64,000 nucleotides of DNA from Gammaproteobacteria bacterium (GTDB lineage: Bacteria; Pseudomonadota; Gammaproteobacteria; QZLD01). Each line of letters starts with the position of its first letter. The stretch's first letter is position 1. The notes under the pieces are model-generated. The model was given only the letters and a program-made list of their open reading frames with translations. It had not been told where the DNA came from and ran no database searches. Positions 27,573 to 64,000 of this stretch are shown piece after piece. The stretch spans positions 65,412-129,411 of the forward strand of contig JAWSVA010000010.1 in NCBI GenBank assembly GCA_033852155.1, written 5' to 3'. The position numbers and the translations under genes are program-made.

Positions 27573-27591
27573 CTTATCAAGGATAGATTAG

Positions 27592-28644: not shown

Positions 28645-30261
28645 ATGCACGTTTGGCTACATGGTGCATTAATTAATCAAACAAAAACAAATAAAGTAAT
28701 GGCTATGGTCTGGAATTTTCGTAAAAAAAATAATGACATGATAAAAAAGCGTGATTTCGATGTAGATGAACTACTCGACTCTATGCAAAAGACAGCAGAA
28801 GGTGTTGGAGAGCTTACCCTTGAGATTGTCGGAATATCTGGACGTGTTGACTCTCTGAGCCAGCAGGTTGATAACGAAGCAAAAATGTTTAATGATCTTA
28901 AAGACAATGCTAATTCAATGATTCAAAGCAACCACACTGTGAATGATTCAGTTAATATGACTAAAGGTGTCATAGTTAATGCAATAGATCATATCCAAGA
29001 ATCAAAAGTAACTATTAGTAGCTCTATCCATAATATTAAAGGGTTATCTGAATCTGTTACTGAAAGCAGCACAGAACTTATAAAACTTAGCTCTGCCCTA
29101 CGCCAGGTTAAAAAGATTACATCTACTATCGCTTCCATTTCAAAGCAAACAAATTTACTTGCACTAAATGCAACTATTGAAGCATCAAGAGCTGGTGAAG
29201 CTGGTAGAGGATTTGCTGTAGTAGCTGATGAAGTAAAATCTCTTTCTAAGAAAGCAGGTGAAGCAACATCAGAAATTTCAGTAACAATTAATGCACTTTC
29301 AAACCAGATTGAATCTCTGGTTAAAATGAGTGAGATTAATAATCAAAAAGCTGATTCTGTGAAAGATGACGCTCAAATGATTGATAATGCAATCACCTCA
29401 CTTGAGCACGATATAAATGAAATAGATGAAAATTCATCTAATATTGTTGCTGCAGCCTCAGATATTGAACAGCAATGTAATTTAACCGTTGATGGCCTTA
29501 ATAACCTTACAGAAGATGTCGAACAAGCTAGTGACACCTTTGGAAAGACAAAGGGGCGTATTAATGCTCTACGCAATAAAATTGAAGATATTGTAAGGCA
29601 TACGTTAGTTGATGGCGTTGAAACCATCGATACTCCAATGATTAATACCTGTAAAGGTCTTGCACAAGATGTAACCAACCTATTTGAAGGTGCCATCAAA
29701 AATGGGCAGATAGAAGAGTCTGACCTATTTGACTTTAACTATGTGGAGATACCAGGAACTAACCCGGTTCAATACAACACCAAATTTGTGCAATTTTGTG
29801 ATAGATCGCTTCCAGGGATTCAGCAACCTGTTCTTGAAGGTGATAATAAAAGAATTGCTACCTGTACGGTTACTGACATTAATGGCTTTATCCCCAGACA
29901 TATTAATGCAAGACACAATCCTCAACGCCCTGAGGACCCAGCGTGGAATAACTTAAACTGCCGCAGTATGAGAATATACAACGATCCATCAGGTATGAAT
30001 GCAGCAAAAAACAGAAATAAATTCCTATTACAAACTTATAGAATCCCCTACCTTGGTGGACAATTTGCCGTACTTAAAGACTGCTCATCACCCGTATATA
30101 TCAACGGCAAGCATTGGGGTTGCATGCGCATCACTTATGACATACAAGTTACCGATGAAGAGGGTAATGACATAATGAATACTGAAGCATTTAAACAAGT
30201 GCTAAAACAAGATAATTACCTAAAAGATAATGCGGACAAGGTTAAACTATCAAATAATTAG
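28645..30261 (+). CDS. soluble MCP-signalling-domain protein with the conserved C-terminal domain (paralog 4)
   Basis: MCP tip ([36 protein letters not shown]). C-terminal domain with [41 protein letters not shown] and NGKHWG. Start uncertain (several in-frame Met at 28645-28738). Confidence 0.75.
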
Positions 30262-36106: not shown

Positions 36107-39100
36107 TTATGGAGCTAATATATTTATATCACCAAGGAACATGGTGAACTCTGTTTCCATAAATGGTAATAAGGTTTCTATTTGTTCTGAGTTTCTTGAA
36201 TGTATAGCCTGCTCTAAATTGAAAGAGGCTTGCTGAAACTTATCTGCAGATATAGTGGCTGCAACACCTTTAAGGCTATGACAAAGTCTATGGGCTAATC
36301 CATAATCTTTCTTTTGAAGGTACTCTTTTAGCTTTTCAATACTATCGCCGTAATCATTTTTAAACAGATAACATATCTCAGTAAAAAGCCCCTCATTTCC
36401 AGCCAGCATATCTAGTGTATTATGCACATCAATTGACTGTAAGTTATTCGGGAAATTAGCACTATCAACCTTTTCCTCAATATCTGCTTCAACCAAAATA
36501 GGCTCTGGAACTATTTGAACTCTTCTATCCCATTTTAGAATAAGCTCATAAAGATCTTTAGATTTAACTGGTTTTGATATGTAATCATCCATTCCATTTG
36601 AGATACAGGATTCTCTATCACCTTGCATGGCATTGGCTGTCATAGCAATTATCACTAAGTCTTTAGTAGCAGGCATAGATCTTAATATCTGTGTAGCCTC
36701 TATCCCACCAATTTCTGGCATATGAATATCCATAAAGACGACGTCGTATCTATTTTGTAGCGTTTTTGCAATTGCTTGCTTGCCATCTTCTGCAATATCT
36801 ACAACCGCACCGACTCTTTCTAGCATCTCACGACCAACTTGCTGATTTATTCTATTATCATCGGTTAGAAGAATTCTTATGCCTCTAATCTTTTCAAGAA
36901 TTTCAACTTCGTCATATGCTTTTTCATCATTTACACTAGATTTATAAATTGGCTTAAAGTCATGATTTGGCAGTAAACTTTTACAAACTGAATTGACAAG
37001 ATCTGATATTTTTATCGGCTTGGTAATGATATTAGATATATCTTTAAGTTGATCTTTGGCAATAGAATTATCGTACCCAAAAACAGATAATAACATAATC
37101 TTTGAATCACAAGAGGATCGTAACTCAGCTAGCCTGCAAGAGAAATCTTGGTCTAGCATATCAGCATCAACAAGTATTAAATCATAACCATTTGCAGATG
37201 ATATTTGCTGTAACAGCGATGCGTAATTATCTGTACTATCAGTATAGATACCATGATTTTTTAACGTTTCTTTTAAATAACTAGCTTCATGCTTATTGGT
37301 AGCAGCTATAAGAATATTCTTTTGCAAGATTTGTTCTGAAATCAGGCTAAGACTGTTATATAACCCAATACTGTTTGAGTCAGAGACTTTCATCTCGGTG
37401 GTAAATGTAAACTTACTTCCCTTACCTACTTCACTAGTTGCACTTATATCTCCATTCATCAGTGCTACTAAATGTTTGCAGATACTTAAACCAAGTCCAG
37501 TACCACCAAATTTTCTTGTGGTAGAGCCATCAGCCTGAGTAAATGGGGTAAATAGTCTTGGCAATACCTCTGGCGCGATACCAATACCAGTATCTGAAAC
37601 CATAAACGAAAGGGTAACTAAACCATTTTCAATCTTGGCTATATCTACAGTTATCTGAATTTCACCTTCATCGGTAAATTTGATTGCATTATTTATAATA
37701 TTTATAAGAACCTGACTCAGACGCAAAGGGTCACCAATAACTTGCCCAGGGAGCTTAGAGCTTGGGTTGATAATCATACTGATGTTCTTATCAACTATTC
37801 TGGTAGAAAAGATATCGGATATATGATCAATAACTTCATATATATTGAACTCTGTCTCTTCAATATTTAGCTTACCAGCCTCGATTTTTGAGAAATCGAG
37901 GATGTCATTTATTATCCCCAGCAGAGTCTGTGAAGAAGTGTTAATTTTACCTAGATAATCACGCAATTTTGTGGACATATCACGCTGAAGGGCCAGCTCA
38001 GTAAGTCCAATAATAGCATTCATCGGGGTTCTGATTTCATGGCTCATATTAGCCAAGAATGAGCTTTTAGCATCTGCAGAAGCTTCAGCAGCCTGCATAG
38101 CAATCATTAGAGCTTCATTTTTCTTTCTTTCAGTATCAACCAATTTGTCCTGAGTAATTTTCAACTCAGACAGAGTATTTTCAATCTCATCTTTTTGCTC
38201 AGCAATAGTTGAGTATAGGCCTGCATTGACAATTGCTGTACCAATAAATGATGATAGAAGTTCAAGAAAATTAATATCTTCTCGAGAAAGGTTAACATAC
38301 GATTTAAAACCGCTTATTGAAATAACACCAATAGATTTACCATCTTTATTGATTGGTAAATGGATAATAGATTTCAACCCTTCCAACCGCTCCAACATCA
38401 CTCTATCGTTGTGGTTCATAGGTAGATTCATTACCTGTGGTACATCAGGAAAATATAAATTTTGATTATTTAGATAACACATAGAGTACGAGCCACCTTC
38501 ATAGCTAATATCGTATGGGTTATCCTCCGTAAATTCAGACCATAATCTAGCTTTTTCCTTATACTCTTCCCCTTTGGTATAGGAAGATACCCCGCGCAAC
38601 AGCCCACCCTTTTCAATCAATATCACAACCATATCAAATGGATAGCGGCTTAAAAACTCATCCGAAATCTTTTCGTATATTTTATCAACTGAATTTAGGT
38701 TATTTACTTCATTTACAAAATTAAGAAACTGCGCGCGTTCAGCGATACCGGTTTCTACAATCTGCTCTTTCTGCTTAAGCTCAGAGTATTTAATTGAATT
38801 ATCAATTGGGTCAAAGAACAGCGAAAGTTTTTTGCCTAAATAATCTATAGATTTCTTACTAATAGCCTCGGAACTATTGAATAACATAATAGCACCCAAT
38901 ACTGGGGCGTTATTATCTTCTATATTGGTTATAGGTATGCTAACCATGTTGTGCATTTTCCAGGCCTTAAACCTAGAGCGAGTTGATTCCGAGAATTTTT
39001 CAATATTATCAGCATTGATTGATACAACTCGTTTATTCTGTATTACTGGTGTGTTTTCATCTGTTGGCCCAAGAGAGTAATTAAAATGATGGAAGGTTTT

Positions 39101-39922
39101 CTCTATAGCTTTAAACTCACCAGGCAAACAAACCCTATTACAAGTAAGATACTTTTTAGCTTTATCTAACAGATTAATCGAATAACCATTTACACTTTCA
39201 AGCTTGCCAATCTCACCACCAAGAATCTCCATGATTTCATCTAGTTTGATTGTTCGGCTTATTCTATGAACTATATCAAGTGTTTCCAGCTGCTCTTGCT
39301 TTATATACTCCTGCTCAAATTTATTTTTTACAATCAGAAAATTTGGAGCCAAACTACCTATAAAAAGATAGATCTCTTCACAAATTTCTTTAGTAAGGTT
39401 TAATTGTTTATCAATAGCACCTAGATGTATTACAGCTATGGTCTTACCACCATCAATAATTGGGAGAATCAAATTTTCTTTAATATTAAGCAGCTCAAGA
39501 CTATTACGGTCAACTTCAGGAATATCACTCAGGGACTCAATTGCTTCAGAATTTGCATAAACCCATCTTTTTGATAGTGCGACTGATGCTGATACAGAAA
39601 GCTTCGGGTCCAAAGGTATATCTACAGATACCTTTTTTCGAATATCATCGCTAACTTCATCTTTGGTATAAAAAGTTAAGAACTTAAGGGCATTTTTCTC
39701 TTCATCAATGATTTGCCCAGCAGACATGTTGAATCCATATCTTTTGTGCAATGCATTGAGAATGACATTTAAAACTTCTTCTAAGGAATCAGAGTGTGCA
39801 ATTTCATGAATTAATGAAATTTCGTTTTGCAAAACATCAATATTACCAGGCCCATGGACCAAAGTTCCACTAAATTGATCTAAGCTTACTTCAGCAAATG
39901 ATTGTTTCTGATTATTTTGCAT
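36107..39922 (-). CDS. hybrid sensor histidine kinase: GAF repeats - HisKA - HATPase_c - pseudo-receiver - receiver - HPt
   Basis: 1271 aa with no obvious TM. HisKA H-box (MSHEIRTPMNAIIGL). ATPase G-boxes (DTGIGI, GGTGLGLSICKHLV). A receiver with phospho-Asp context (VVFMDIHMPEIGG) preceded by a degenerate REC-like module. C-terminal HPt (HRLCHSLKGVAATISA). Confidence 0.85.
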   Translation of the reverse strand: MQNNQKQSFAEVSLDQFSGTLVHGPGNIDVLQNEISLIHEIAHSDSLEEVLNVILNALHKRYGFNMSAGQIIDEEKNALKFLTFYTKDEVSDDIRKKVSVDIPLDPKLSVSASVALSKRWVYANSEAIESLSDIPEVDRNSLELLNIKENLILPIIDGGKTIAVIHLGAIDKQLNLTKEICEEIYLFIGSLAPNFLIVKNKFEQEYIKQEQLETLDIVHRISRTIKLDEIMEILGGEIGKLESVNGYSINLLDKAKKYLTCNRVCLPGEFKAIEKTFHHFNYSLGPTDENTPVIQNKRVVSINADNIEKFSESTRSRFKAWKMHNMVSIPITNIEDNNAPVLGAIMLFNSSEAISKKSIDYLGKKLSLFFDPIDNSIKYSELKQKEQIVETGIAERAQFLNFVNEVNNLNSVDKIYEKISDEFLSRYPFDMVVILIEKGGLLRGVSSYTKGEEYKEKARLWSEFTEDNPYDISYEGGSYSMCYLNNQNLYFPDVPQVMNLPMNHNDRVMLERLEGLKSIIHLPINKDGKSIGVISISGFKSYVNLSREDINFLELLSSFIGTAIVNAGLYSTIAEQKDEIENTLSELKITQDKLVDTERKKNEALMIAMQAAEASADAKSSFLANMSHEIRTPMNAIIGLTELALQRDMSTKLRDYLGKINTSSQTLLGIINDILDFSKIEAGKLNIEETEFNIYEVIDHISDIFSTRIVDKNISMIINPSSKLPGQVIGDPLRLSQVLINIINNAIKFTDEGEIQITVDIAKIENGLVTLSFMVSDTGIGIAPEVLPRLFTPFTQADGSTTRKFGGTGLGLSICKHLVALMNGDISATSEVGKGSKFTFTTEMKVSDSNSIGLYNSLSLISEQILQKNILIAATNKHEASYLKETLKNHGIYTDSTDNYASLLQQISSANGYDLILVDADMLDQDFSCRLAELRSSCDSKIMLLSVFGYDNSIAKDQLKDISNIITKPIKISDLVNSVCKSLLPNHDFKPIYKSSVNDEKAYDEVEILEKIRGIRILLTDDNRINQQVGREMLERVGAVVDIAEDGKQAIAKTLQNRYDVVFMDIHMPEIGGIEATQILRSMPATKDLVIIAMTANAMQGDRESCISNGMDDYISKPVKSKDLYELILKWDRRVQIVPEPILVEADIEEKVDSANFPNNLQSIDVHNTLDMLAGNEGLFTEICYLFKNDYGDSIEKLKEYLQKKDYGLAHRLCHSLKGVAATISADKFQQASFNLEQAIHSRNSEQIETLLPFMETEFTMFLGDINILAP

Positions 39923-40389
39923 TTATCTTATTATTATTCTATGTTCGTTTATTTTTAATCGTTTTTATTATTCTAGCAACAGCTACCTACAGATCTAGAT
40001 TAATTATAGATAGTTTAAGTATATAAATCTATTTTGATTGCTTGTTTTGTGAGTCTTATCAACAAAAATAAGTTCAGACTAATATGCATTGTTATTATCT
40101 ATCGGAATAATTTGCGATTTCTTTATCCTCTTTGAAAATCTTGGCTTTTCTTTTTCTCAAACTGTTTTACGAAATCTTTACTAGCTGCTTTTGCAGTATT
40201 CCCTTTTGCCGTTAATGTGCATTAACGGCACTTTAAAAGGTGTCCAGATTTACTGAACCACTACATTTTCTTTGCGTAGAGAGTGGCTTTCATGCGGCTC
40301 CTCTACAATGTTTGTTGTTTGTACTGTTCTGTTTCAGAACTCTTTTGTTTTAAATCGCCCATTTGATTTTCGTTATTTAAACCAATGGT

Positions 40390-40420
40390 GTCAGAGTCAA
40401 TTAATTATATCGACTCTGAC
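40390..40420. terminator. hairpin GTCAGAGTC-N13-GACTCTGAC downstream of the 40432..41112 gene
   Basis: Perfect 9-bp stem with a T-run on the plus side (ATCATTGATTTTT). Sits 12 nt beyond the stop of the minus-strand gene. Same CAGAGTCAAT core as the hairpin at 15674-15709. Confidence 0.4.
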
Positions 40421-40431
40421 ATCATTGATTT

Positions 40432-41112
40432 TTACAGTCCAAAATTCTTCTTTACACCTGAAGCTGTTTTACTAACATCTGCCAATGACGCGCCTAATTT
40501 CAGATCTGGATAACCCATAGTTTTCTCAAAGAAACGAGCCCTTTCTTCATTCTCAATATCAGTTGCAATTTCAATATTAGTTTTAATTGCTGCTTTGAAT
40601 TCATTTGCAAACTTTTGCTGTTCAACTGCTTCACCCTGAAAACTCGTGATTTTATTACCCCACTCACGTTCAAAACTAAAAAGCTGCTTTTTAAGTTTTG
40701 CCGCAGCCTCATGAAATATCCCTACTCCGCTCCGAACATCCATCCAGGTTCTCATAACATTCTGAAATGCAATAAGACCTGCTAACAAAGCGGTAATTTG
40801 AGTGGCAATTGTTGTTGATGCTGCATTGCCATTTAGTGTTGCCAACAGGAATACGGCAACGGGTAATAAAAGTAAAAGCAAAGCACTAACAAAAAAGAAA
40901 AAACGCCTTTTTGCAGTCTCTTTTGCTATCTTATTTTGATACCAAAAAATATTAAGATGCACTTGAGTAATCAGTTCAATAAGATCTTCATCAAACCTTT
41001 TATCATCAAGTCCGATGCCTAGATTATGTTTCATCACCGGAAGGTCAACCAAAGCTTCTGCTGGATTACGCCTTGATGATTTATTTGCCTTTTCGAAGCT
41101 ATATTGTTTCAT
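40432..41112 (-). CDS. hypothetical membrane protein with a central 2-TM hairpin
   Basis: 226 aa with two adjacent hydrophobic helices (FFFFVSALLLLLLPVAVFLLATL, TQITALLAGLIAFQNVM) flanked by charged helical regions. No recognised family. Confidence 0.4.
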   Translation of the reverse strand: MKQYSFEKANKSSRRNPAEALVDLPVMKHNLGIGLDDKRFDEDLIELITQVHLNIFWYQNKIAKETAKRRFFFFVSALLLLLLPVAVFLLATLNGNAASTTIATQITALLAGLIAFQNVMRTWMDVRSGVGIFHEAAAKLKKQLFSFEREWGNKITSFQGEAVEQQKFANEFKAAIKTNIEIATDIENEERARFFEKTMGYPDLKLGASLADVSKTASGVKKNFGL

Positions 41113-41145
41113 GGGGTTTTCCTAGTCAGAGTCGGTTAATCTTAG

Positions 41146-41430
41146 CTAAACAAACTTATCCAGAAGAGTAACTATAATATCTGCAAACTCTTCTGTATTT
41201 TCGACTATTTTGTTTACCTTGGTATTTTGGTCTTCAGCAGACTTAACAATTTTCATTAACTTTGTTAAACGCTGCAAATCTGCAGGCACCGGAAAAAACT
41301 CAGATATCTCTTCATCTGTCATTCTGGTAACAGAAGATACTTTTGCAGCAAGTTTTGCATCGGTTATGGTTACACTATCATCAATAGCATCATTTAAATC
41401 AGTTTCAAAATTATCCCAATCTATCGGCAT
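41146..41430 (-). CDS. small acidic hypothetical protein
   Basis: 94 aa, Asp/Glu-rich (MPIDWDNFETDLNDAIDDS...). The ORF is co-oriented and closely spaced with the neighbours on both sides. Confidence 0.35.
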   Translation of the reverse strand: MPIDWDNFETDLNDAIDDSVTITDAKLAAKVSSVTRMTDEEISEFFPVPADLQRLTKLMKIVKSAEDQNTKVNKIVENTEEFADIIVTLLDKFV

Positions 41431-41507
41431 GTCCTTTTCCCTTTTTATTTAATTCTTATCGCTTAGTCATTCCCGCGCAGACGTACTACTGTCTGGGACA
41501 TTAGAAA

Positions 41508-42170
41508 TTAAAGAGAGTTTTTAAGCTCCCTAATCTTCCCAACATACTCTTCAGCTATTGCAGACTTTTCATCAACTGTCTTAGCGCCATCCAGAAGCTT
41601 AGTTACAATCTCATCAGTTTTATCGATAACTTTTGAGATTTCCTCTTCAGTTACTCCAGCTTTCGCTAATAGTCGATCCCTATTTTCAGCAACTTTAGAC
41701 GCTGATAACAAGAACGATGTAACAGAGTTGTTAATCGCCTTGGCCTGCGCATATTCATTCTTGAGTGAATGCTCAATCTGCCTTTCAAGCTCATCAAGTG
41801 GTCTAATTAGCTCTAATCTTTTTTGATTTATGGTTTCTTGCAGGCTGGTGCCAACTTTCATAAGAAACTTGGTTCTTTGCTTGTTATCATTTTCGCGTAC
41901 TACTGTATTCCAAGCATTGGCTATCTGCGGTCTACGGAAGAACTCATTGGAAAATGTTGGTAGCCATTCATGCTCAATAAAGGTATCAATGTCTTTGCGC
42001 TTTTGTTCAAAGAATCTATTTAAAAGCCTTATATTAGCTTCTTCTAGGCTTTCAATACGTTTACCCAATTCTGATGAAAGAGTTGGGGCTTCAGATGGGA
42101 TGTTTGCGCAACCAGAGAAGCTAAATACAACTATTCCCAAAGCTACAAATCTAAATAATCCTTTTATCAT
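41508..42170 (-). CDS. coiled-coil lipoprotein, function unknown
   Basis: Signal peptide with lipobox (FRFVALGIVVFSFSGC) then a largely helical, heptad-rich sequence. Start placed at the MIKGL Met. Lies 12 nt downstream of the DUF4157 gene. Confidence 0.5.
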   Translation of the reverse strand: MIKGLFRFVALGIVVFSFSGCANIPSEAPTLSSELGKRIESLEEANIRLLNRFFEQKRKDIDTFIEHEWLPTFSNEFFRRPQIANAWNTVVRENDNKQRTKFLMKVGTSLQETINQKRLELIRPLDELERQIEHSLKNEYAQAKAINNSVTSFLLSASKVAENRDRLLAKAGVTEEEISKVIDKTDEIVTKLLDGAKTVDEKSAIAEEYVGKIRELKNSL

Positions 42171-42215
42171 TCTGTTTTCCTTTTTACTACTCACTAATAA
42201 CAATAACCAATTTAT

Positions 42216-44636
42216 TTAAGACTTCCAGTATTTATGCATCCACGCTGATATGGTATCCCACTGCCCCCAGTCGACACCATCATCCATCTCGTCCTTACTA
42301 ATACCATTTTTTCCGCCTAAGTATTCACCATCTAAATTAAGAATCATTTGGCGTACTATATATACAATTGCATCCTCATCATCGTTATCACAGTTGCCAT
42401 CTAAAAGAACGCGTATTATGGCGACCCATTTTTCTTTGGTTAGGTTGTAATACGGTATCGGTTGTACAAGTAGTCCCCGCCACTGGCCAATTTTTGTTAG
42501 CCATCTAGCTGCAACATCATCATTATCTTTTATAATCCAATTGGCTCCAGCATTATTTGCAGGATCTGACTTCAAGGTATACATATAAAGGAAGAAATCC
42601 CAGTTATCCCCCTGAATAGAGTTATCAAACACATCCATGCCAATATCTTTAATCAGCCTCTGGCATACCTCATCACTCTGGTAATAAAGAATCGCTATTA
42701 CAGCAACCTCTTCATCATCCATACATAAACCGTCAACTGTTTCCTCTTCAAACAGGTCATACCAATTATCAGTTGGCTTATTCAATAATGACATAATTAT
42801 ATGTTTTAACGCGCTATAAGGCAGGTATAGAGCATTTATCCTGCTTACATCTATCTTGCCTTTGTCGTTGGTCAGGAATGTCATAATGTCGTCATCGACA
42901 TCAGTTTTCATAAACCCTGGGTCATGCAGGACCTTTTCATAGAATTTGCATGTTTTCTCATATATTTTCTGTTCTACTGGGTCACTCTTTTTCCCAAGAG
43001 CAAGTGTTTGCTCTGTAGTTAGCTCATTCCCCTTTTCATCTTTATGCGCGGCACGCCAGGCATTCATGATTTCTGCCTGTGTTTTTGTTACTTTGCCAGA
43101 TGACGTACTGACCTCTTCATTTTCCACTTTGCCGCCAGTGAACTTATCCATATCGGTTTCCATTGCATGCCAAATTGGCCCTGCAACTGGATCTTTCATA
43201 ATCTTGGGAATGTTTGGACCGGGGTTTGGCATTGGTTTTTCCGCCTTAATAGCAGATGGCTTGACCCCTGTTGCTATAGAATAGATCTCAGCGATTGAGT
43301 TATATGATTCACCACCAACAATCTCAGCATCCTCATTAGTCCCTGTGCCATCACCATGAAACTTATGCGAAGTATTACGGCTATAACGCATATCTATGCC
43401 GGTTTCTAAATCACAGAGGATGTCATGATAGGTTTTAGATCTAAAATCAGGCCCGTCAAATGCTGAATCAAATGCACGCGGGTATTGATGCCCTGATGCG
43501 AAAGTATCCTGCAGAAAATGGAGTGCAAATGCTTCATGAATTAAAGCGTTATGCATTGAGTCTTTTGCTTTGCCTAATTTATTCTCTTTTAACTCACGAT
43601 TTGCAGCTGCAGCATAACCTTTTGCGGTCTTATGATTAGCCTCCCATTCACACTCTGCTAACGGGAAAAAATGGTTCCAGTTAGTTTTGGCTAAAGCAAT
43701 ATACGGAGATACTATTGCTGTAAGGCCTTCGGCTCCATATTGGTCTTTATCCATATCTTGTGCTGTTCTACTGTGGTCTCCTGCATTTTTAGTTGCCCAG
43801 CCAAGACTTTTTCTTTTAGGTTTTACTTGGGTTTCAGTAGTTTGACCTTCGCCATCATCTACCTCTACTTCTACTTCTTCACGAAACTCAATAGAATATT
43901 CATCTCCAAACCCTAGCCCTGAGTGTTCACCCTTAGCTTTGGAGTTTATCTTTTTAAGCCCTTCAAGCAATGTACTTTTATGTTGCACCAGTTTTTGCCC
44001 AGCGATATCTCCATAGCTTTTATGTTCTTTGGCACCCCATTTGCGCAGTGTATTACCAGAATCCTGCTGCATAGTATGCGCAATTTCATGGGTTAATATT
44101 GCCTGTCCTGATTCAGTATTTGGGGCATATTGTCCCTGGCCAAAATATATATCACGTCCGACACTAAATGCCTTTGCATCTACAGCGTTTGCAGCCTCAG
44201 CCGCACCACTACCAGTGTGTACTCTCACATTAGAAAGCGATTGACCGTAATATGATTCATACCCTTGTCTTTGTGAACCAGAAAGTGATGCGCCACTTTG
44301 CTCAAAGCCAAGGTTAATTCCATTGGATGATGAAACTGGAGATGTCTTGAATGGAGCGTTTTTGCCACCAGACATATAACCTGCAGCTGCAGAATCAGCT
44401 TGCTGTTCACTGGGGTCGCCGCTGGAACCAAACTTAAGTTTTCCCTTAGCAGATGATGCATAGAGGATATCTCTTATTTGCTCTTGCCTATCGGCACTGT
44501 TTGACTCTTTGCAAACGACATCATTGCATTTTGCTGGTGATTCTTGTTTTTCAGCTGCGCGTTGTTTCATTAAGTTCTCTAGCTTTGTATCAATTGGCGA
44601 AAGATTTTTCGCCCCTACACAACTCATCATTCCCAC
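42216..44636 (-). CDS. DUF4157 (zincin-like HExxH) domain protein with large uncharacterised C-terminal region; candidate eCIS cargo/toxin
   Basis: 806 aa. Residues ~115-190 (GASLSGSQRQGYESYYGQSLSNVRVHTGSGAAEAANAVDAKAFSVGRDIYFGQGQYAPNTESGQAILTHEIAHTMQQ) match the DUF4157 signature VRVHT...A.AFT.G.DI.F..G.Y.P.T..G..LLAHELTHVVQQ almost position for position. The N-terminal ~100 aa is low-complexity and disordered. The C-terminal ~600 aa matches no known domain. Sits immediately downstream of the eCIS structural genes on the same strand. Confidence 0.8.
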   Translation of the reverse strand: MGMMSCVGAKNLSPIDTKLENLMKQRAAEKQESPAKCNDVVCKESNSADRQEQIRDILYASSAKGKLKFGSSGDPSEQQADSAAAGYMSGGKNAPFKTSPVSSSNGINLGFEQSGASLSGSQRQGYESYYGQSLSNVRVHTGSGAAEAANAVDAKAFSVGRDIYFGQGQYAPNTESGQAILTHEIAHTMQQDSGNTLRKWGAKEHKSYGDIAGQKLVQHKSTLLEGLKKINSKAKGEHSGLGFGDEYSIEFREEVEVEVDDGEGQTTETQVKPKRKSLGWATKNAGDHSRTAQDMDKDQYGAEGLTAIVSPYIALAKTNWNHFFPLAECEWEANHKTAKGYAAAANRELKENKLGKAKDSMHNALIHEAFALHFLQDTFASGHQYPRAFDSAFDGPDFRSKTYHDILCDLETGIDMRYSRNTSHKFHGDGTGTNEDAEIVGGESYNSIAEIYSIATGVKPSAIKAEKPMPNPGPNIPKIMKDPVAGPIWHAMETDMDKFTGGKVENEEVSTSSGKVTKTQAEIMNAWRAAHKDEKGNELTTEQTLALGKKSDPVEQKIYEKTCKFYEKVLHDPGFMKTDVDDDIMTFLTNDKGKIDVSRINALYLPYSALKHIIMSLLNKPTDNWYDLFEEETVDGLCMDDEEVAVIAILYYQSDEVCQRLIKDIGMDVFDNSIQGDNWDFFLYMYTLKSDPANNAGANWIIKDNDDVAARWLTKIGQWRGLLVQPIPYYNLTKEKWVAIIRVLLDGNCDNDDEDAIVYIVRQMILNLDGEYLGGKNGISKDEMDDGVDWGQWDTISAWMHKYWKS

Positions 44637-44644
44637 GAAAGCAA

Positions 44645-44740
44645 GAATCTATTTTTCCCTTCCAATGCTCTGCGTTGGAACGAGGGTTATGATGGAGTTT
44701 TTGATTTATACTTCGACTACGCTCAGTAGACTTAAATCAA
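44645..44740. repeat. intergenic repeat copy (a): TTCCAATGCTCTGCGTTGGAACGAG palindrome plus CTTCGACTACGCTCAG module
   Basis: Shares modules with copies at 53984, 55012, 56575 and 61330. The palindrome module is present in reverse-complement orientation relative to TTCCCACGCAGAGCGTGGGAACGAG. Confidence 0.6.
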
Positions 44741-44760
44741 AAGCTCTCCACACAGATTTA

Positions 44761-52346: not shown

Positions 52347-53548
52347 TATCCTCTACGACCTCCCTGGAACTTCAGGTAGTAATATCCACGAGCAGGGTCT
52401 GTGGAATTATTATCACAAATAGCTATCTCTAAGCCATTAAGGACAACTCTTCCAGACTCAGATTGGTCGGTAAATGTACTACCAGCACGTTTAAAACGTT
52501 CAATATGAATATTTTCAACACCATCTATATTCATTAATACTTCAAAGATATCTCCGGCAAAAAGATCTTCGCCAAATTGAAGTCTGCCAGGCTGGAAGAA
52601 TCCACCATCTGTGGTTGCCAATGCCTGATTTACTGCATATTGCACTTCTGACTGGAAGTAGTTCGAATCTACTGTAACCATTAGTGACATGAAGATTCCA
52701 ACCTCTTCAGCATCACATAACTGCACCTCTTGCCCTATCATGCGATACGATTCTACGAATGGTTTTAGTATGGTGCGAATCGATGGATTACCTGCAAAGT
52801 CAGGTACAAAAATCTCACGAGATTTATGAAAACTTTCTATCTCATCGATTATCTGTTCATTGTATTCGACTTTATCTGCATCAAGCTTGTTACGTTTCCA
52901 CAGAATAACGGCAACCTTGATAATCAACCATGAACCACTCCATTCACTCCATGAATGAGCACGCAATACCAAAGGGTGCTCTTCAATTCGGTTTACATAG
53001 TCATCAACTGTAACCATGCGATGCTGGTCATGAATTGAGCGAATACCCTGCTTTTTTGCCTGCTCCATCTCGGCTGGATTATTCAGCCAATAGTTATCGA
53101 AAACTCTTTTCTCTTCAGCTGCAATCTCTTCAGCAGTTCCATCTAGTGTTGCTGAAGATGTAAATGGCTCTTGTTTTTTCGCCCTAGACAGTGCCAGAGC
53201 ATCGTAACCAATAATCTGCAATAACTTACGCACCGAATCTGGTCTGCGCGCAATCTCTAAGAATGCCTCAACTGTAACTCTATCAAGCTTATCTGAAAGT
53301 AAATCAAGTACAGATGATAAAGCCTCGGTTATAACCACTTCTAAATCAGCTGGGGTCCATCGGCTTCTTTCTGGAAAACGAGCTATTAACTCCTCCATCA
53401 TCGCCAAACGGATACTATCGTAATCACGAGTTTGCCAGTTGAAATCGTCACCTATCTCCGGCAACTTATTTGGTAGCTCCACTATCCTTTTACCACAATC
53501 TGGATAGTGACCTTCAAATACTAATTCTGGTGTTGGACTATGAGCCAT
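52346..53548 (-). CDS. Baseplate_J-like protein (P2 gpJ / T4 gp6 family, Afp11-like)
   Basis: 400 aa directly after the gp25/W gene (1-nt overlap), as in P2 W-J-I order. The N-terminal region (DYDSIRLAMMEELIARFPE...) resembles the gpJ N-terminus. Confidence 0.5.
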   Translation of the reverse strand: MAHSPTPELVFEGHYPDCGKRIVELPNKLPEIGDDFNWQTRDYDSIRLAMMEELIARFPERSRWTPADLEVVITEALSSVLDLLSDKLDRVTVEAFLEIARRPDSVRKLLQIIGYDALALSRAKKQEPFTSSATLDGTAEEIAAEEKRVFDNYWLNNPAEMEQAKKQGIRSIHDQHRMVTVDDYVNRIEEHPLVLRAHSWSEWSGSWLIIKVAVILWKRNKLDADKVEYNEQIIDEIESFHKSREIFVPDFAGNPSIRTILKPFVESYRMIGQEVQLCDAEEVGIFMSLMVTVDSNYFQSEVQYAVNQALATTDGGFFQPGRLQFGEDLFAGDIFEVLMNIDGVENIHIERFKRAGSTFTDQSESGRVVLNGLEIAICDNNSTDPARGYYYLKFQGGRRG

Positions 53549-53946
53549 TACAATGACTCCTTAGACAGTGAAAATGTTTGTCGCTCAGTAAAGCCTATTG
53601 TTGCCAGCGTATAAGCGACATGGATATGTAGCATCTCACCATCACCTGCCACATTAACATCGATAGTCTTCGGATCTACCTCGCCGTGCAGCGCCTGAGC
53701 GAGAGACGAGATAAGCCTTTTGCGCGTTACCTGCCACATTGCTGATGTATTTGGTTCAAAAACCAATGTACGCAACCCTGCACCAAATTCCGGGCGAAAC
53801 ACCCTCTCACCAGGATTGGTGAATAATACCTGCTCAATCTGACCACGCACATGTGCGCTTCTGTTCGCCAGGTTGGCTCCATTTTTGCCAACTCTAAGCG
53901 GGAAACTCAGGTATGGAGGATCTACTAATCTTTTTCCCATGTTCAT
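53548..53946 (-). CDS. GPW/gp25-like baseplate wedge protein (Afp9-like)
   Basis: 132 aa with the gp25 signature region VRGQIEQVLFTNPGERVFRPEFGAGLRTLVFEPN. Confidence 0.8.
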   Translation of the reverse strand: MNMGKRLVDPPYLSFPLRVGKNGANLANRSAHVRGQIEQVLFTNPGERVFRPEFGAGLRTLVFEPNTSAMWQVTRKRLISSLAQALHGEVDPKTIDVNVAGDGEMLHIHVAYTLATIGFTERQTFSLSKESL

Positions 53947-53983
53947 TTTTTGAACCTAAATCCTTAGATAAATCTTTTTCATT

Positions 53984-54175
53984 TGGTGGGCATTGCCCAC
54001 CCTACGTTCTGTTACTTCAATCAAGCACACTTCGACTACGCTCAGTGAACTTGTTTTTGTTGGGCTTCGCAAGCTCAGCGCCAACCTACATTCATTACCT
54101 TATTTCCCTTCACTTCGACCTTGGTTTATCTCGAGCGTAGTCGAGAGGCTCAGCGGGCGGAAAATAATCAGCAAT
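53984..54175. repeat. intergenic repeat copy (b): GGTGGGCATTGCCCACC palindrome, CTTCGACTACGCTCAG, CCTACATT and GAGCGTAGTCGAG modules
   Basis: Read directly from the sequence. Fills the 245-bp gap between the spike and gp25 genes. Confidence 0.65.
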
Positions 54176-54191
54176 CGCAATAGTTTTTCTC

Positions 54192-54992
54192 CTACGCAGA
54201 CGTTACCTTCATCGACAGTGTAGACATCTCACCCTGCGGTATGGGTGGACCCGAAGGCCCCATACTTGTCGGGTGAATATGGGTAGCAAACATGGTGAGA
54301 AAACTCTGACCTTTGATAATCGGCTCTCCACCTGCGCCACCTAGCTGTACTTGCGTTGCATCAAGGTTAATGGTTTGTGCTTGAATCTTTATTCCTGCAG
54401 CACCCATCTCAACCTTATTACCATTACTGTCTTCAACCACGACTCCACTTGAATCCATAGTTGCTGTATTACCATTGGCATCAACAATCTCTATCGAGCC
54501 GCCTTCGGCATCCATAGTAAGTGCGCCATCATCTTGCGCACGTAGTTCAATCGAACCATTATTATCAATTTTAAAAATGGCACCACCTGAGTGGGTAATA
54601 AGGATCTCTTCTTCATCTTCCTTATCTTCTAGCTCAATAGAGTGTCCTGACTGTGTGCGCAAAATCTTTCTGGTTGGTTGTGCACCTTCGCCAGTTGGCA
54701 TTGCCTGTTCTGGCTGCCAAAAAGTTCCTGTCCAGATTGGATGTGATACCATCCCCTCTTCAAACTCAACCCACACTTGGGCATCAACTTCTGGAATAAA
54801 ACTCATACCAACATTATCCATACCGCCATATGGAAGGCATGGCAAAGCCCATCCGGTAACCTCTTCACCAAGTACCGAAGGCACCATAAGTTTAAGCTTA
54901 CCGAGTTTATCTGGGTCTTCTCTGTCCACTACGAAACCACGGTATTTACCGTAGTAGCGTTGTGTTGATGAGTTTTGTGTTTCGTCTGTCAT
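54192..54992 (-). CDS. gpV/gp5-like baseplate spike protein (OB-fold + beta-helix; VgrG C-terminal half equivalent)
   Basis: 266 aa starting YYGKYRGFVVDREDPDKLGKLKLMVPSVLGEEVTGWALPCLPYGGMDNVGMSFIPEVDAQVWVEFEEG...HPIWTG, a textbook Phage_base_V OB-fold. It is followed by Gly/Asn-rich beta-helix repeats. Confidence 0.8.
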   Translation of the reverse strand: MTDETQNSSTQRYYGKYRGFVVDREDPDKLGKLKLMVPSVLGEEVTGWALPCLPYGGMDNVGMSFIPEVDAQVWVEFEEGMVSHPIWTGTFWQPEQAMPTGEGAQPTRKILRTQSGHSIELEDKEDEEEILITHSGGAIFKIDNNGSIELRAQDDGALTMDAEGGSIEIVDANGNTATMDSSGVVVEDSNGNKVEMGAAGIKIQAQTINLDATQVQLGGAGGEPIIKGQSFLTMFATHIHPTSMGPSGPPIPQGEMSTLSMKVTSA

Positions 54993-55011
54993 ATACCTTT
55001 CAATTCTATTT

Positions 55012-55185
55012 GGTGGGCAGTGCCCACCCTACATTCATGTGTTTTACCGTATGCATTCCCACGCAGAGCGTGGGAACGAGAAAAAACAAGTCGGCTGAGC
55101 GTAGTCGAAGCCTCTTGTTTTTCAACAAATTCATCCTTATTTTCCTTCACTTCGACTACGCTCAGCGGGCGGAAAATATATAGCA
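55012..55185. repeat. intergenic repeat copy (c): GGTGGGCAGTGCCCACC, CCTACATT and TTCCCACGCAGAGCGTGGGAA palindromes plus a 16-bp inverted pair CTGAGCGTAGTCGAAG / CTTCGACTACGCTCAG
   Basis: Read directly from the sequence. Lies between the hub and spike genes. Confidence 0.65.
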
Positions 55186-55246
55186 TCGCATCACGGTTAT
55201 TACCCAACTCCTTTCTTTTTAAAGAAACAGAGGGTAATCCATTTTT

Positions 55247-56386
55247 TTAAATCAACGCAGCCAAGCTACCCAGCAGGCCACTTTCAATATTGTCACCAAA
55301 GGCATTACGAATAAGCTTAAAATTCTGCTGATATCCTTCAAAGGAGAAGCTGTGGGTTACTGAATCAACGTAATAAATTCCACCCAACCAATCACCAACT
55401 CCATCTACCGGAACTGGCTCTCCTACTCGTAAAACATGTCCATAGAAGGTGCCATCAAGAATACCTTGCGCCTTTACCTTCATCGATAATTCATTTGCCT
55501 TGGCCTGCGCCAAAGTTAACCTATCCTCTTCACTTACACCTGCTCCCTGATTGCGCATCTTCCAGGTGAAATCCGGTAGGCCAGAACCACTACTATCAGC
55601 CGCTGTTGTTCCCATTAAAGGAAGGTTTGAGGCTATAGTCTGAGTGACTACACCTGCTCCATTTTCCGCTGCCACATCGAAGGCAACCATGTCTGGAGAA
55701 TGGGAATCAACGTTGCTGGAGAAATTGATACAATTGGTATCGTCACCGGCGTAAACCATGATGTTTGCCTGTGGTTCCATCTCTAATCGCATCGGACCGA
55801 AATATATCAACCCTTCGCTGATTATCAGTTCATAGCCGTTTGCTATGGCGCGATCCTGCAGAAATACGATATCAGTAGAGTCCTGGTTTATTACTAATGA
55901 TTGTTTACCGACCTGACTATCGGGATGTACAGCTAAACCATGGTTACCTGCAATCTCGGCAACTATCACAGCATCTGTAGTTGGAGCAGTTGCCCCCCAT
56001 GATTTACCTACATGTAATCTATCTAAGGCAATCGATTCATCCTGACAATTCACAGTAACAACGCAGTTATTGTCACTTGGGTAATCAACCGACATCTCAC
56101 GGATATATCCGCGCATAACCTCTTCAGTGTTATCGCCAAAAACAGCCTCGATAACTATTGGCTCCCATGGAAGAAAGATACCTGCGTCTTGCACATCCCA
56201 AGTGCCATCGGTGTCTCTAACTGTGTTGAAAGTCAAAGTGGCTGTGGTAGCTCCTTCTCTGGATGCGTCTACTTTCACCTGTTGCAGATATTGGTAGAAA
56301 TCGGAGATCTCGCTCTCTTGCGATCCTACCTTTATCTTGCACTCTGCCGGGGCATTGTTTTGGGTGAATAATGAGAGTAGTGACAT
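55247..56386 (-). CDS. phage late control gene D-like baseplate hub (gp27/VgrG N-terminal half equivalent)
   Basis: 379 aa sitting immediately before the gpV-like spike as a separate gene. Size and architecture are consistent with Phage_GPD. Confidence 0.55.
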   Translation of the reverse strand: MSLLSLFTQNNAPAECKIKVGSQESEISDFYQYLQQVKVDASREGATTATLTFNTVRDTDGTWDVQDAGIFLPWEPIVIEAVFGDNTEEVMRGYIREMSVDYPSDNNCVVTVNCQDESIALDRLHVGKSWGATAPTTDAVIVAEIAGNHGLAVHPDSQVGKQSLVINQDSTDIVFLQDRAIANGYELIISEGLIYFGPMRLEMEPQANIMVYAGDDTNCINFSSNVDSHSPDMVAFDVAAENGAGVVTQTIASNLPLMGTTAADSSGSGLPDFTWKMRNQGAGVSEEDRLTLAQAKANELSMKVKAQGILDGTFYGHVLRVGEPVPVDGVGDWLGGIYYVDSVTHSFSFEGYQQNFKLIRNAFGDNIESGLLGSLAALI

Positions 56387-56574
56387 CGTTTTATCTATAG
56401 GCCTCGATTTGTTTTACCACTTTTACATATTCGGATGTAGCTTTATCAGCAATCCCGCGGCACATACCTATGCCTTTGGCTATAAGCTCTATACATAGCT
56501 TTTTTACCAATCTGAAAAGAATTAATTTTTTAACTTTTTTCATGTTCCTTTGCCTTTTTTGATGTTTTTAAAAC

Positions 56575-56695
56575 AAAGTGGTTTCGACTACGCTCAACCG
56601 ACTTGTTTTTTGGTGCAATGCGCTTCGCTTATTGACACCCTACATTTTCCGTCCTTCAATCTATGCATTCCCACGCAGAGCGTGGGAACGAGAAG
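56575..56695. repeat. intergenic repeat copy (d): GTTTCGACTACGCTCAA, GCTTCGCTTATTGACACCCTACATT and TTCCCACGCAGAGCGTGGGAACGAG
   Basis: Read directly from the sequence. Lies between the LysM and hub genes. Confidence 0.65.
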
Positions 56696-56706
56696 GTATT
56701 TTATTA

Positions 56707-57000
56707 TTATTCAGATTCCCGCGGAATCAGAATAATCTCACCAATCATATTGCTATCTAACATCAGGTCGGCTCCGTATGAGATATGGGGATTAGCATCC
56801 AGAATGCGCCACCACATACGGTCGTTGTTGTAGTAGTTTTGTGCTAGATGGTCTAAACGGTCACCCTGCTTTATCTCATACTCAACTACGCCTGTTGCCG
56901 GTTTAATATCTCTGAATCTCAGCCCTTTAAAGCCAGTTCCGCTAGTTTCGGATGGAGTAAATCCCGGTGTGTCTTTGTATCTAGATCTATCGGCTCTCAT
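56707..57000 (-). CDS. LysM-domain protein (Afp7/Pvc7-like baseplate/tube-initiator associated)
   Basis: 97 aa with the LysM signature YEIKQGDRLDHLAQNYYNNDRMWWRILDANP. Start overlaps the stop of the upstream tube-like gene (ATGA). Confidence 0.65.
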   Translation of the reverse strand: MRADRSRYKDTPGFTPSETSGTGFKGLRFRDIKPATGVVEYEIKQGDRLDHLAQNYYNNDRMWWRILDANPHISYGADLMLDSNMIGEIILIPRESE

Positions 57001-61300: not shown

Positions 61301-61329
61301 TATATAACCTCTTCTTTCAACCTTTTGTT

Positions 61330-61436
61330 GGGTTTCGCACTCAGCACCAACCTACATTTTTCTTCAAAGTACCATCATATTTTCCTACCCTTCACTTGTG
61401 CTGAGCGTCGCCGAAGTGCGCTCAGGGGTCGGAAAT
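61330..61436. repeat. intergenic repeat copy (e): CACCAACCTACATTTTTC, CCTTCACTTGTGCTGAGCG and GCGCTCAGGGGTCGGAAATAATC modules
   Basis: Shares the CCTACATT core and the TTCACTTCGAC...GCTCAGCGGGCGGAAAATAAT-type tail with copies b and c. Confidence 0.6.
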
Positions 61437-61438
61437 AA

Positions 61439-62324: not shown

Positions 62325-62834
62325 CTAAGCTTCAGTCGGCTCTGATACGCTAGTATCTCTTTCCCAGCCTTCATGCTGCAAAGTGACAGTTTGAATACCA
62401 ACAGCGTTCATGCTACCAGCATCCAAATCAGGCAATGCCTGAAAATCAGAAACCCAAGCACGATAAAGCTTATAAGAGATAGCAACCTCACCTTGCAGAT
62501 TAAGGACATTGATGATGATATCTTTTCTGAAGTTCTTTAAAGAGATCGCAGAATCGCCATCAATATTGTTCACTGACTTAGCCCAATCCTCAAAAATAGG
62601 ATCGTGAGTCAAACCCATCTCTAAAGTAACAGGCTCGTAGCTTGAACCACCAGGCATTACTCTCTCGTGAGAAGGATCGCCTGCACTACGCCATTTAACC
62701 GCTTCAGTCTTTTTCTTCAGTGCGCCCATCTTGCGTAGACCAGCTACTGACTTACCATCGATAATCACCTGAAACTTAAAAGTTCTGTAAGGATCATGAC
62801 GGTGCGTATTAACATTAAACATTGGTGCTGCCAT
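62325..62834 (-). CDS. contractile tail tube protein (T4 gp19 / Afp1-Pvc1 family)
   Basis: 169 aa. YRTFKFQVIIDGKSVAGLRKMGALKKKTEAVKWRSAGDPSHERVMPGGSSYEPVTLEMGLTHD matches the tube-protein signature F.F.V.I.G..V.G.....GL....EV.EYR.GG...PG...Y..vTL..G.t.D. Confidence 0.85.
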   Translation of the reverse strand: MAAPMFNVNTHRHDPYRTFKFQVIIDGKSVAGLRKMGALKKKTEAVKWRSAGDPSHERVMPGGSSYEPVTLEMGLTHDPIFEDWAKSVNNIDGDSAISLKNFRKDIIINVLNLQGEVAISYKLYRAWVSDFQALPDLDAGSMNAVGIQTVTLQHEGWERDTSVSEPTEA

Positions 62835-62911
62835 TGTTTTATTCCTTTTTCAATTCTTCCCTGAAAAAGCCCTCAAGAGAGCTTTCTCAGATTGATTACT
62901 TATTCGTTAGC

Positions 62912-64000
62912 TTATTGCTGTCCAACTTTTTGTTGGATTCTCAAGATTACAAACTCAGCAGGTTTTAACGGCGCAAAACCAACAACAGCAATAACTTGTC
63001 CTCTGTCGATATCAGCTTGAGTCATTGTGTCACCAAGTCCACAACGCACAAAATAAGCATCAGAAGCCTTAGTACCTTGGAAGGCACCGGCACGGAAAAG
63101 ACCATTCATAAACGATTCAATATTCACACGCAGTGAAGACCAAAGGTCATTATTATTTGGCTCAAACACAGCCCATTGAATGCCGTCAGAAACGCTTTCC
63201 TCAATAAACATAGCTGTTCTTCTGACAGGAACATAACGCCACTCAGGGTCAGCCTTAGTGGCCAGAGTACGCGCACCCCAAACAACAGAACCATAAGATG
63301 GCAATGTTCTAAGAGCATTAACACCAAGAGGATTCAGATAATCCTGCTCGCTATCTTCAACGATATACTCAAGACCATTAAGGCCAAGTACACCAGTTTC
63401 AACACCAGCAGGAGCTTTCCACACACCACGTCTAGCGTCAGTCTTAGCCCATATGCCAGCTGCAAAAGCAGAAGACTGAACCAATACATTCTTAGCAGCT
63501 CCTGGGTTAGTGTCTGCATTATAGAAAGGATTTGAAACTTGCGCCCAAGGATAATAAGTTGCGCAGTAAGTTTTAGTAGGAAGACCAAGATCGGTAACAT
63601 CCTTCTCTTGCTCCAGCTCAGTGCTAGGAGGAAGATCGACGATAACCATACGGCTCTTCATCTGCTCACAGTGAGCCACCGCAGATTCAATCGCAGGCTT
63701 ATGAGCGCTGTTCCACCATTTGCCAGGAAGACAGATAACATTGATATCACGAATCTTCACAAACTTAGCGAATACATAATCATAAGCGCCGTTATCAGCA
63801 GCAGCACCATCTTTGCCACCTTCCAACACAACCTCAACCGCATCACCAGCAGCAAGCTTATTAATAGCAGCAGCTTTAAGGCCAGATAAAGCCTCAGCAG
63901 AGATATAGTTTGAAACACCGTTGATATTACCAACGATATACTCAGCTTTATCAGCAGAGTTTAAGCTGATGTCAGCGAATCTCTCTGCAGCTTCAAAATC
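62912..64000 (-). CDS. contractile tail sheath protein (gp18/Afp2-4 family), 5' end beyond window
   Basis: The reading frame stays open on the minus strand from 63829 to position 64000 (checked codon by codon), so the gene is truncated by the window edge. The C-terminal region (GVNALRTLPSYGSVVWGARTLA...AYFVRCGLGDTMTQ) is typical of the sheath C-domain. Confidence 0.8.
   Translation of the reverse strand, partial: DFEAAERFADISLNSADKAEYIVGNINGVSNYISAEALSGLKAAAINKLAAGDAVEVVLEGGKDGAAADNGAYDYVFAKFVKIRDINVICLPGKWWNSAHKPAIESAVAHCEQMKSRMVIVDLPPSTELEQEKDVTDLGLPTKTYCATYYPWAQVSNPFYNADTNPGAAKNVLVQSSAFAAGIWAKTDARRGVWKAPAGVETGVLGLNGLEYIVEDSEQDYLNPLGVNALRTLPSYGSVVWGARTLATKADPEWRYVPVRRTAMFIEESVSDGIQWAVFEPNNNDLWSSLRVNIESFMNGLFRAGAFQGTKASDAYFVRCGLGDTMTQADIDRGQVIAVVGFAPLKPAEFVILRIQQKVGQQ

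Follow-up and report, generated by a model that had tools for sequence, protein, structure and literature searches.

Why should an operon whose genes mostly overlap, or lie a few bases apart, be interrupted five times by intergenic stretches packed with palindromes? The operon in question encodes an extracellular contractile injection system (eCIS). Recognized by its Pfam matches, it occupies the minus strand from about 40.4 kb to the end of a 64,000-nt piece of DNA, the whole of which we call the window (a gammaproteobacterium, assembly GCA_033852155.1, contig JAWSVA010000010.1, positions 65,412 to 129,411; 39.9% GC). With their limits corrected as explained below, the gaps that hold repeats are a (44570-44760), b (53947-54191), c (54993-55246), d (56547-56706) and e (61301-61438). 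The answer that we favour, and consider likely, is that they are clusters of at least three families of palindromic repeats of the repetitive extragenic palindromic (REP) type, which have colonized eCIS junctions that were previously compact. On this view they are selfish or passenger DNA of an ordinary sort, and not a novel device of regulation.

An original prediction, drawn from the letters of the DNA alone, had described the five gaps as mosaics of common modules, and each module that it quoted is indeed found where it was placed. Within the eCIS part of the window, modules are present in five of the six gaps of at least 60 nt, as against none of the 19 such gaps elsewhere in the window (hypergeometric probability 6/53130, about 1e-4). 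A mismatch-tolerant search for the modules and a generic search for a tag followed by a hairpin yielded none in 1-44 kb of the window, and the 77-nt gap between the sheath and tube genes (62835-62911) has no module either. This enrichment of the eCIS part is real, and it is explained only in part.

Repeat families in the gaps

By definition a REP is a palindrome 20-50 nt long with a conserved tetranucleotide, in most cases GTAG, in front of it (PMC8266576), and a GTAG super-family has been classified among them (Di Nocera et al. 2013, PMC3733652). The module that joins a hairpin to CCTACATT is a GTAG-tagged REP in this sense. It has six copies, with GTAG on the sense (minus) strand and directly 5' of the palindrome in all six. 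They read (A/G)(A/T/C)GTAGG and then enter an imperfect stem-loop, with stems of 7-8 bp and a minimum free energy of -6 to -13 kcal/mol. There are four types of stem (GGTGGGCA, GTTGG(G)C, GGTG.CAAT and GGCGAAA); GTGGGCA-N-TGCCCAC and TTGG..CCAA are each used twice, GTG.CAAT..ATTG.CAC and GGCGAAA..TTTCGCC once. Taken alone CCTACATT is not rare (5 occurrences for 2.4 expected), and four of the five stand directly after a palindrome within the eCIS gaps. Judged by sequence, this first type is a GTAG REP, and one of its copies is identical to a REP that in other genomes adjoins a gene for the REP-associated tyrosine transposase (RAYT).

Two of these copies, all of them on the minus strand, lie in gap b. 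The last one (53985-54008), AACGTAGG-GTGGGCA-A-TGCCCACC, leaves 38 nt to the ATG of the gp25 gene; the other (54059-54092) is AATGTAGGTTGGCGCTGAGCTTGCGAAGCCCAAC. The copy of gap c (55012-55035), AATGTAGG-GTGGGCA-C-TGCCCACC, stops 21 nt short of the spike ATG, and GGTGGGCANTGCCCACC is present both there (55012-55028) and in the last copy of gap b (53985-54001). In gap d, AATGTAGG-GTGTCAATAAGCGAAGCGCATTGCACC (56612-56646) has a stem with one bulge; two related loci introduced below, L166 and L168, carry this type with both sides of the stem altered (CAAT/ATTG versus GATA/TATC). The copy of gap e, AATGTAGG-TTGGTGCTGAGTGCGAAACCCAAC (61327-61358), ends about 25 nt before the GTG of the gene for a 461-aa protein and belongs to the same family as a 31-mer of gap b to which we shall return. 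The sixth, GTGTAGG-GGCGAAA-AATC-TTTCGCC, is in gap a (44596-44620) and ends 26 nt before ATG 44569. The last GTAG hairpin of gaps a, b, c and e ends 21-38 nt ahead of the next start codon. The association of a REP with an inverted REP across a linker, which makes a bacterial interspersed mosaic element (BIME), is not seen in the window: its GTAG REPs are unpaired, and only the module that we call M3 forms an inverted pair.

M3 consists of a conserved 12-nt loop, GAGCGTAGTCGA, closed by a short variable stem of 4-5 bp, which in the window is CACT/AGTG, TACT/AGTA, GGCT/AGCC or GGTT/AACC. CTTCGACTACGCTCAG has four exact copies in the window and two with two mismatches, for 0.00 expected from 100 shuffles. 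The unit may stand single or within an A/T-rich outer palindrome; it forms an inverted pair once, and is interrupted by another unit twice, in gaps b and e. On the plus strand, gap a has TACT-TCGACTACGCTC-AGTA inside the outer palindrome TTTTGATTTA...TAAATCAAAA (44699-44742), gap b has CACT-TCGACTACGCTC-AGTG followed by AAC (54028-54050), and gap d has GGTT-TCGACTACGCTC-AACC inside AAAACAAAG...CTTGTTTT (56570-56609, inverted repeat I1). For gap c, a perfect inverted pair of 16 bp around some 40 nt had been announced. The pair is there (55094-55166), with two perfect arms that measure 17 bp (55094-55110 and 55150-55166) and lie 39 nt apart. It makes a hairpin similar to that of REP doublets forming hairpins (REPINs) and dominates the predicted fold of the gap; its architecture recurs in L164 and L166, two relatives of the locus, and the inner unit (55082-55122) is also within a palindrome, AAAAACAAG...CTTGTTTTT. 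A further module had been proposed in the form of a 'tail', GCTCAGCGGGCGGAAAATA. The sequence is present, yet it is the flank of an M3 unit, and in gap e it starts just past the upstream stop codon. It accompanies a degenerate, interrupted unit in gap b (TATTTTCCGCCCGCTGAGC / CTCTCGACTACGCTCGAG, 54130-54168, minus) and a rearranged one in gap e, a TTATTTCCGACCCCTGAGCG...CGCTCAG palindrome placed right after the stop of the gene for a 283-aa protein (61400-61438, minus); at that position L164 has an intact M3 unit, CCCTGAGCGTAGCCGAAGGG. By eye, the M3 core, CTGAGCG..G.CGAAG, looks similar to the loop of the TTGG-type REP and its surroundings (GCTGAGC..GCGAAGC).

The remaining module, M2, is CTCG-TTCCCACGC-TCT-GCGTGGGAA-TGCA, a 9-bp stem with a 3-nt loop. 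Its copies in gap c (55051-55080, minus) and gap d (56663-56692, minus, perfect stem, followed by TGCAT) are identical over 33 nt (family D2), and include TTCCCACGCAGAGCGTGGGAACGAG at 55056-55080 and 56668-56692, respectively. A variant in gap a, TTCCAATGCTCTGCGTTGGAACGAG (44660-44684, minus), has its loop inverted (AGA to TCT) and its stem altered: at one pair both sides are changed, A-T standing for C-G, and one pair reads as G.T in the plus orientation and as A.C in the sense one. The modules quoted for gap c were all present, and a hairpin had been missed there, ATTACCC...GGGTAAT followed by CCA (55195-55241, plus; I22). It resembles, with a degenerate tag, the CGTC-type REPs of relatives (GGATTACCC...GGGTAATGAC in L166).

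On the sense strand all the gaps fold better than their shuffles (z of -2.8 for a, -2.5 for b, -5.9 for c, -2.6 for d and -1.6 for e). In the IMG/VR collection, M2 with its central positions left free is found in 40 stretches and the M3 16-mer in 97, both recurring in unrelated contigs of 42-69% GC. The central pair of M2 is C-G, A-T, G-C or T-A in 45 of 53 distinct copies, that is, it covaries. Among 85 distinct instances of M3, the two flanking positions pair in 75 and 69, versus 31 and 34 after shuffling, so that M3 is a conserved loop on a covarying stem. Outside this lineage, M2 mostly comes as the latter of two hairpins in one unit, as in the IMG/VR stretches L103-L123 (sample 3300047160 and others), with the order xGACGCAGAGCGTCx, about 8 nt, TGCG and TTCCCACGCAGAGCGTGGGAACGAG; the copies of the window are without the first hairpin. 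A separate observation concerns IMGVR_UViG_3300037488_003126 (L020, L049, L068, L095), an AT-rich 24-kb contig filed as viral, where six intergenic GCCCTTCGACTACGCTCAGGGTGACAGCC share one orientation, so that hairpins of the M3 type populate phage-like genomes too.

Two gap limits had to be moved. The eCIS_core (DUF4157) gene was called as 806 aa (42216-44636, minus), from a GTG at 44636 whose first 22 codons cross the GTAG REP. ATG 44569 has a purine-rich stretch ahead of it and is most likely the true start, in which case gap a reaches 44570, beyond the 44645-44740 first given for it. Gap d begins at 56547, past an open reading frame (ORF) of 51 codons, MKKVKKLILFRLVKKLCIELIAKGIGMCRGIADKATSEYVKVVKQIEAYR (56390-56546, minus), which lies between the LysM-like and hub genes and is not a repeat. 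Its sequence is conserved in L164, where it was left uncalled as a gene, and its product may be a small component of the eCIS.

Related loci and wider distribution

Were the gaps always there? Close loci were chosen by the identity of their hub proteins: L164 (92%), L166 (82%) and L168 (77%). The closest assemblies are metagenome-assembled genomes (MAGs) labelled 'Gammaproteobacteria bacterium' (PJM12_PHB_gam2 and a sister), from biofilms on polyhydroxyalkanoate (PHA) plastic at a JAMSTEC shore site. In L168 the junctions equivalent to gaps d and b have 29 and 37 nt and are free of repeats, and junction c holds GTAG REPs. Three eCIS loci at 57-60% identity have the same gene order, with equivalent junctions of -4 to 40 nt and one of 109 nt. 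In L164 and L166 the equivalent junctions are enlarged to 150-510 nt, with a content unlike that of the window. Both have M3 pairs and TTGG-type REPs, together with many canonical CGTC-tagged REPs (CGTCATCCCGGCGAAGGCCGGGATCCA, CGTCATTCCCGCGCAGGCGGGAATC), of which the window has none. Some junctions are tight in the window yet occupied in these relatives, after the gene for a 542-aa protein in both and after that for a 74-aa protein in L166; gap e is missing from L166. When junction b of the window is set beside that of L164, the two share 16 nt at the start and roughly 70 nt at the end, including the final REP, which is orthologous to that at 53985-54008, and the interior has been replaced. 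Short, repeat-free junctions in distant loci and differing contents in close ones imply that the compact operon is ancestral and that the repeats are recent and turn over fast. Comparison of orthologous loci had been proposed from the start, and it does present the modules as insertions absent from the compact junctions of distant eCIS loci.

Nor are the repeats bound to this operon. A REP pair lies upstream of the eCIS operon in L164. In the MAG from which L166 comes, CGTC REPs cluster with M3 units in the intervals that separate ssb, wzi, capsule-export and Schlafen-like genes. These being unrelated genes, the repeats are not specific to eCIS; copies of the GTAG REP are also found on other contigs of that MAG (L200 and L228). 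As a side remark, the 'genes' called at the hub-spike junction in L164 (11166-11297) and L168 (3743-3922) are read-throughs of REPs (IPACAGMT, CRVGIAHQ), hence an artefact of annotation. Elsewhere, the exact spike protein of the window turned up on one contig only, a unitig of 955 nt from a related sample. That unitig ends inside repeats, as expected if they are multi-copy in that community.

The 31-mer of gap b, GTAGGTTGGYGCTGAGCTTGCGAAGCCCAAC, leads much further. It is found without a mismatch in at least 119 stretches of a collection of species-representative genomes, in Beta- and Gammaproteobacteria of 35-71% GC. Its hosts include Pseudomonas schmalbachii, with dozens of copies, Methyloprofundus, Cocleimonas and other Thiotrichaceae, Nitrotoga, Deefgea, Vogesella and Burkholderiales. 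Among the matches listed, the copies elsewhere are mostly inverted dimers of the REPIN type. The REP 21-mer of gap c is in 25 IMG/VR stretches. A tblastn search of all the DNA fetched, with E. coli RayT as the query, placed homologues next to the 31-mer REP in Deefgea (L238, E = 2e-51) and in an uncultured gammaproteobacterium (L209, E = 2e-39), both genes matching Pfam Y1_Tnp. In L209 (6724-8000), eight or more REP doublets of the family of the gap b REP come after the RAYT gene in tandem, at intervals of some 95 nt, which makes a very clean REPtron.

Probable colonization, its rivals and what it would mean

How would such repeats settle between eCIS genes? RAYT, or TnpAREP, is a tyrosine transposase of the HUH type, and its substrate is a single-stranded hairpin with a 5' GTAG. 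It mobilizes GTAG REPs and REPINs (PMC3116915, PMC8266576). On single-stranded DNA the GTAG hairpins of the window would thus be suitable substrates for an enzyme supplied in trans, and there is no RAYT gene in the 64 kb of the window. Copying mediated by a transposase or by recombination would spread the repeats, and they would persist where genes and start signals are left unbroken, as suggested by the 20-40 nt, with an intact ribosome-binding region, that follow the last REP. Tolerance would then best account for the enrichment in eCIS: the junctions of a long accessory operon have neither promoters nor operators to lose. Existing palindromes may, in addition, attract further insertions, and the nested M3 units of gaps b and e suggest that they do.

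Several observations weigh against colonization of this kind. Purely neutral, random dispersal does not predict confinement to the eCIS part of the window. The six GTAG REPs share one orientation, and none is an inverted dimer, the form typical of the family elsewhere. Neither M2 nor M3 is an exact fit to the published GTAG or CGTC definition, and both lack an assignable transposase. Finally, when JGI metagenomes were scanned for a 20-mer from the 'tail', only one match came back, a chance one within GC-rich coding sequence; either the tail is confined to this lineage or that collection does not contain the lineage.

The rival that survives best is selected operon punctuation, in which hairpins would stabilize or attenuate segments of the mRNA, giving sheath and tube in excess over hub, spike and baseplate. 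We judge it unlikely. The same junctions are reoccupied in the window, L164 and L166 (after the LysM-like, hub, spike, 283-aa and 542-aa genes), yet what occupies them is not conserved among relatives at 82-92% identity, and orthologues at 57-77% keep the gene order with compact junctions. That the eCIS part is so strongly enriched within the window would fit a function in that system, but the same repeats adjoin unrelated genes in a relative, and the boundary of the high-copy components is marked inconsistently, with a repeat-free sheath-tube gap and a gap e that L166 lacks. Effects of REPs and BIMEs on mRNA decay are documented in E. coli, according to work cited in PMC8266576. By analogy, hairpins in the polycistronic mRNA of the operon may incidentally slow 3'-to-5' decay or uncouple translation; any such effect would be a side consequence of the repeats and not the cause of their presence.

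Sites resembling terminators number 15, versus 14.1 in shuffles, and none is on a repeat; promoter-like sites number 30, versus 45.1, and again none coincides with a repeat. The repeats are consequently most likely transcribed within the operon mRNA, with no terminator-like tail and no excess of promoters. The folds are stable, but equally so on the two strands: summed over 16 modules, their energies are -197 and -199 kcal/mol. All six GTAG REPs are co-oriented with transcription, and in each of gaps a, b, c and e one of them stands 20-40 nt ahead of a start codon. Replication fits this bias equally well, however, since GC skew puts the sense strand as the leading strand, which makes it the template of lagging-strand synthesis, the one preferred by enzymes of the IS200/IS605 type; we discarded orientation as evidence for a function of the RNA. 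We also discarded an attempt to recognize the acting strand from its mismatches. The IMG/VR copies of M2 have eight C.A and no G.T on the TTCC...CGAG strand, which would favour the CTCG strand, but these copies are in part non-independent, and copy a of the window shows the opposite asymmetry. Equal strand energies, contradictory mismatches and an orientation that suits replication as well leave no sign in the sequence that the RNA form is under selection.

A bolder variant, in our eyes about as improbable, would make M2 and M3 very widespread, uncatalogued families of hairpins whose loop is read by a conserved protein, for example a transposase other than RAYT, and which that reading would hold almost unchanged in hosts of 42-69% GC; their capture in the sense orientation at the same eCIS junctions would then reflect selection for punctuation of the operon. 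Much less plausible still is the suggestion that the gaps encode small proteins, or a structured non-coding RNA of a described family. Gene callers did place ORFs of 43 aa (L164) and 59 aa (L168) at the junction, and ORFs of 60-91 aa run across the window's gaps; the 43-aa product, however, is the REP read-through mentioned above (IPACAGMT..CRVGIAHQ), without counterpart in the window beyond the REP itself, and the only conserved small ORF, that of 51 codons, is outside the repeats. No Rfam family matches the window at its gathering score, the best hits in 53900-56750 (E 1.4) being to unrelated small nucleolar RNA models of eukaryotes. The least credible reading, that the contig of this MAG was misjoined across multi-copy sequence, can point to the unitig that breaks inside repeats, but two independent NCBI assemblies and several distant eCIS loci keep the same succession of genes across every gap, and junction b agrees with L164 to the base in its first and last parts.

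If recent colonization is accepted, its value is mainly in annotation. The repeats inflate intergenic gaps and break short-read assemblies; clusters of REPs generate spurious small 'genes' in MAGs and can displace predicted starts, as in the 806-aa eCIS_core protein. Taken together, the four related eCIS loci make a clean natural example of the turnover of REP-type repeats in one operon with tolerant junctions, and would offer a convenient test bed for any effect of REP hairpins on how the eCIS genes downstream of them are expressed. Neither eCIS nor REPs are to be understood differently in consequence.

Genomic setting and known repeat systems

On the minus strand, Pfam matches identify the sheath gene (62912-63829) and a gp19-type tube gene (62325-62834). 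The hub gene (379 aa, 55247-56386) is separated by gap c from the spike gene (54192-54992), with its oligonucleotide/oligosaccharide-binding (OB) fold, and gap b lies between the latter and the gp25 gene (53548-53946). The other genes of the operon, on the same strand, encode the 283-aa and 461-aa proteins, Pvc16_N, an AAA ATPase, CIS_tube, a LysM/tail-X-like protein and large baseplate proteins. At its distal end, beside eCIS_core, 36107-42203 encodes a 1271-aa protein, another protein with a weak match to DUF4231, and proteins of 94 and 231 aa, all of which may be cargo or effectors. Querying IMG/VR with the hub protein recovered no eCIS relative from that collection. The first 40 kb of the window are chromosomal housekeeping genes, including rlmE, greA, carAB, an AcrB-type pump, dapB, dnaJ-dnaK-grpE, nadK, recN and chemoreceptors. 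Among the latter, four paralogous methyl-accepting chemotaxis genes in tandem (24625-30261) have a 142-nt block in common, at 65-75% identity (repeat family D1).

It remains to place the repeats among known systems. The original prediction had called them REP-, BIME- or Correia-like mobile elements. Of these likenesses, that to REPs holds, through the GTAG definition and the RAYT neighbours found elsewhere; strict BIME structure and Correia identity do not. A cyanobacterial origin, with repeats of the HIP1 type, was considered and rejected, GCGATCGC being absent from the window. With Correia elements, also known as Neisseria miniature insertion sequences (NEMIS), and with miniature inverted-repeat transposable elements (MITEs), the modules have in common that they are small, non-coding, able to form hairpins and lodged within an operon, and the M3 pair, 73 bp with 17-bp arms, looks like a miniature inverted-repeat element. 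Unlike them, the window has no 26-bp Correia termini and no TA duplication at the M3 pairs, and its units are also found single. As to the target-site duplications that the original prediction had proposed to check for, the M3 pairs have no direct repeats beside them in the window, L164 or L166.

The comparison with CGTC REPs, such as Neisseria dRS3 and Rickettsia RPE-4/6, is closer. These repeats have a CGTC tag (or TGTC/CCTC), a stem of 8-9 bp that opens with A/T pairs, a loop of 4-5 nt and a CCA tail (PMC3733652). M2 resembles them in its 9-bp stem (TTCCCACGC/GCGTGGGAA), which opens with two A/T pairs (TTCCC...GGGAA), in its short loop, its unpaired 5' tag and its 3' tail, and true CGTC REPs fill the junctions of L164 and L166. 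It departs from them in that its tag is (Y)CTCG (CTCG, or CCTCG in copy a) instead of CGTC or TGTC, its loop has 3 nt instead of 4-5, and its tail is TGCA instead of CCA. With these differences, M2 is at most a candidate member of that type. To our knowledge, no transposase is known for REPs of the CGTC type.

The BIMEs of E. coli (REP y, z1 and z2) are, like the gaps of the window, intergenic mosaics of a few hairpin types inside operons, and are transcribed along with these, as is most likely for the gaps too. A BIME, however, is a REP with an inverted REP, joined by defined linkers and often in tandem, whereas the window mixes unrelated families. The GTAG REPs and REPINs remain. The copies of the window differ from these in being single, in one orientation and interleaved with other families of repeats. 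They are like them in the 5' GTAG that precedes an imperfect palindrome of 17-28 nt, in their position between co-directional genes, in their paired variation of stems, and in a 31-mer that is found, identical and in many copies, across many Proteobacteria and stands beside a RAYT gene in two of them.

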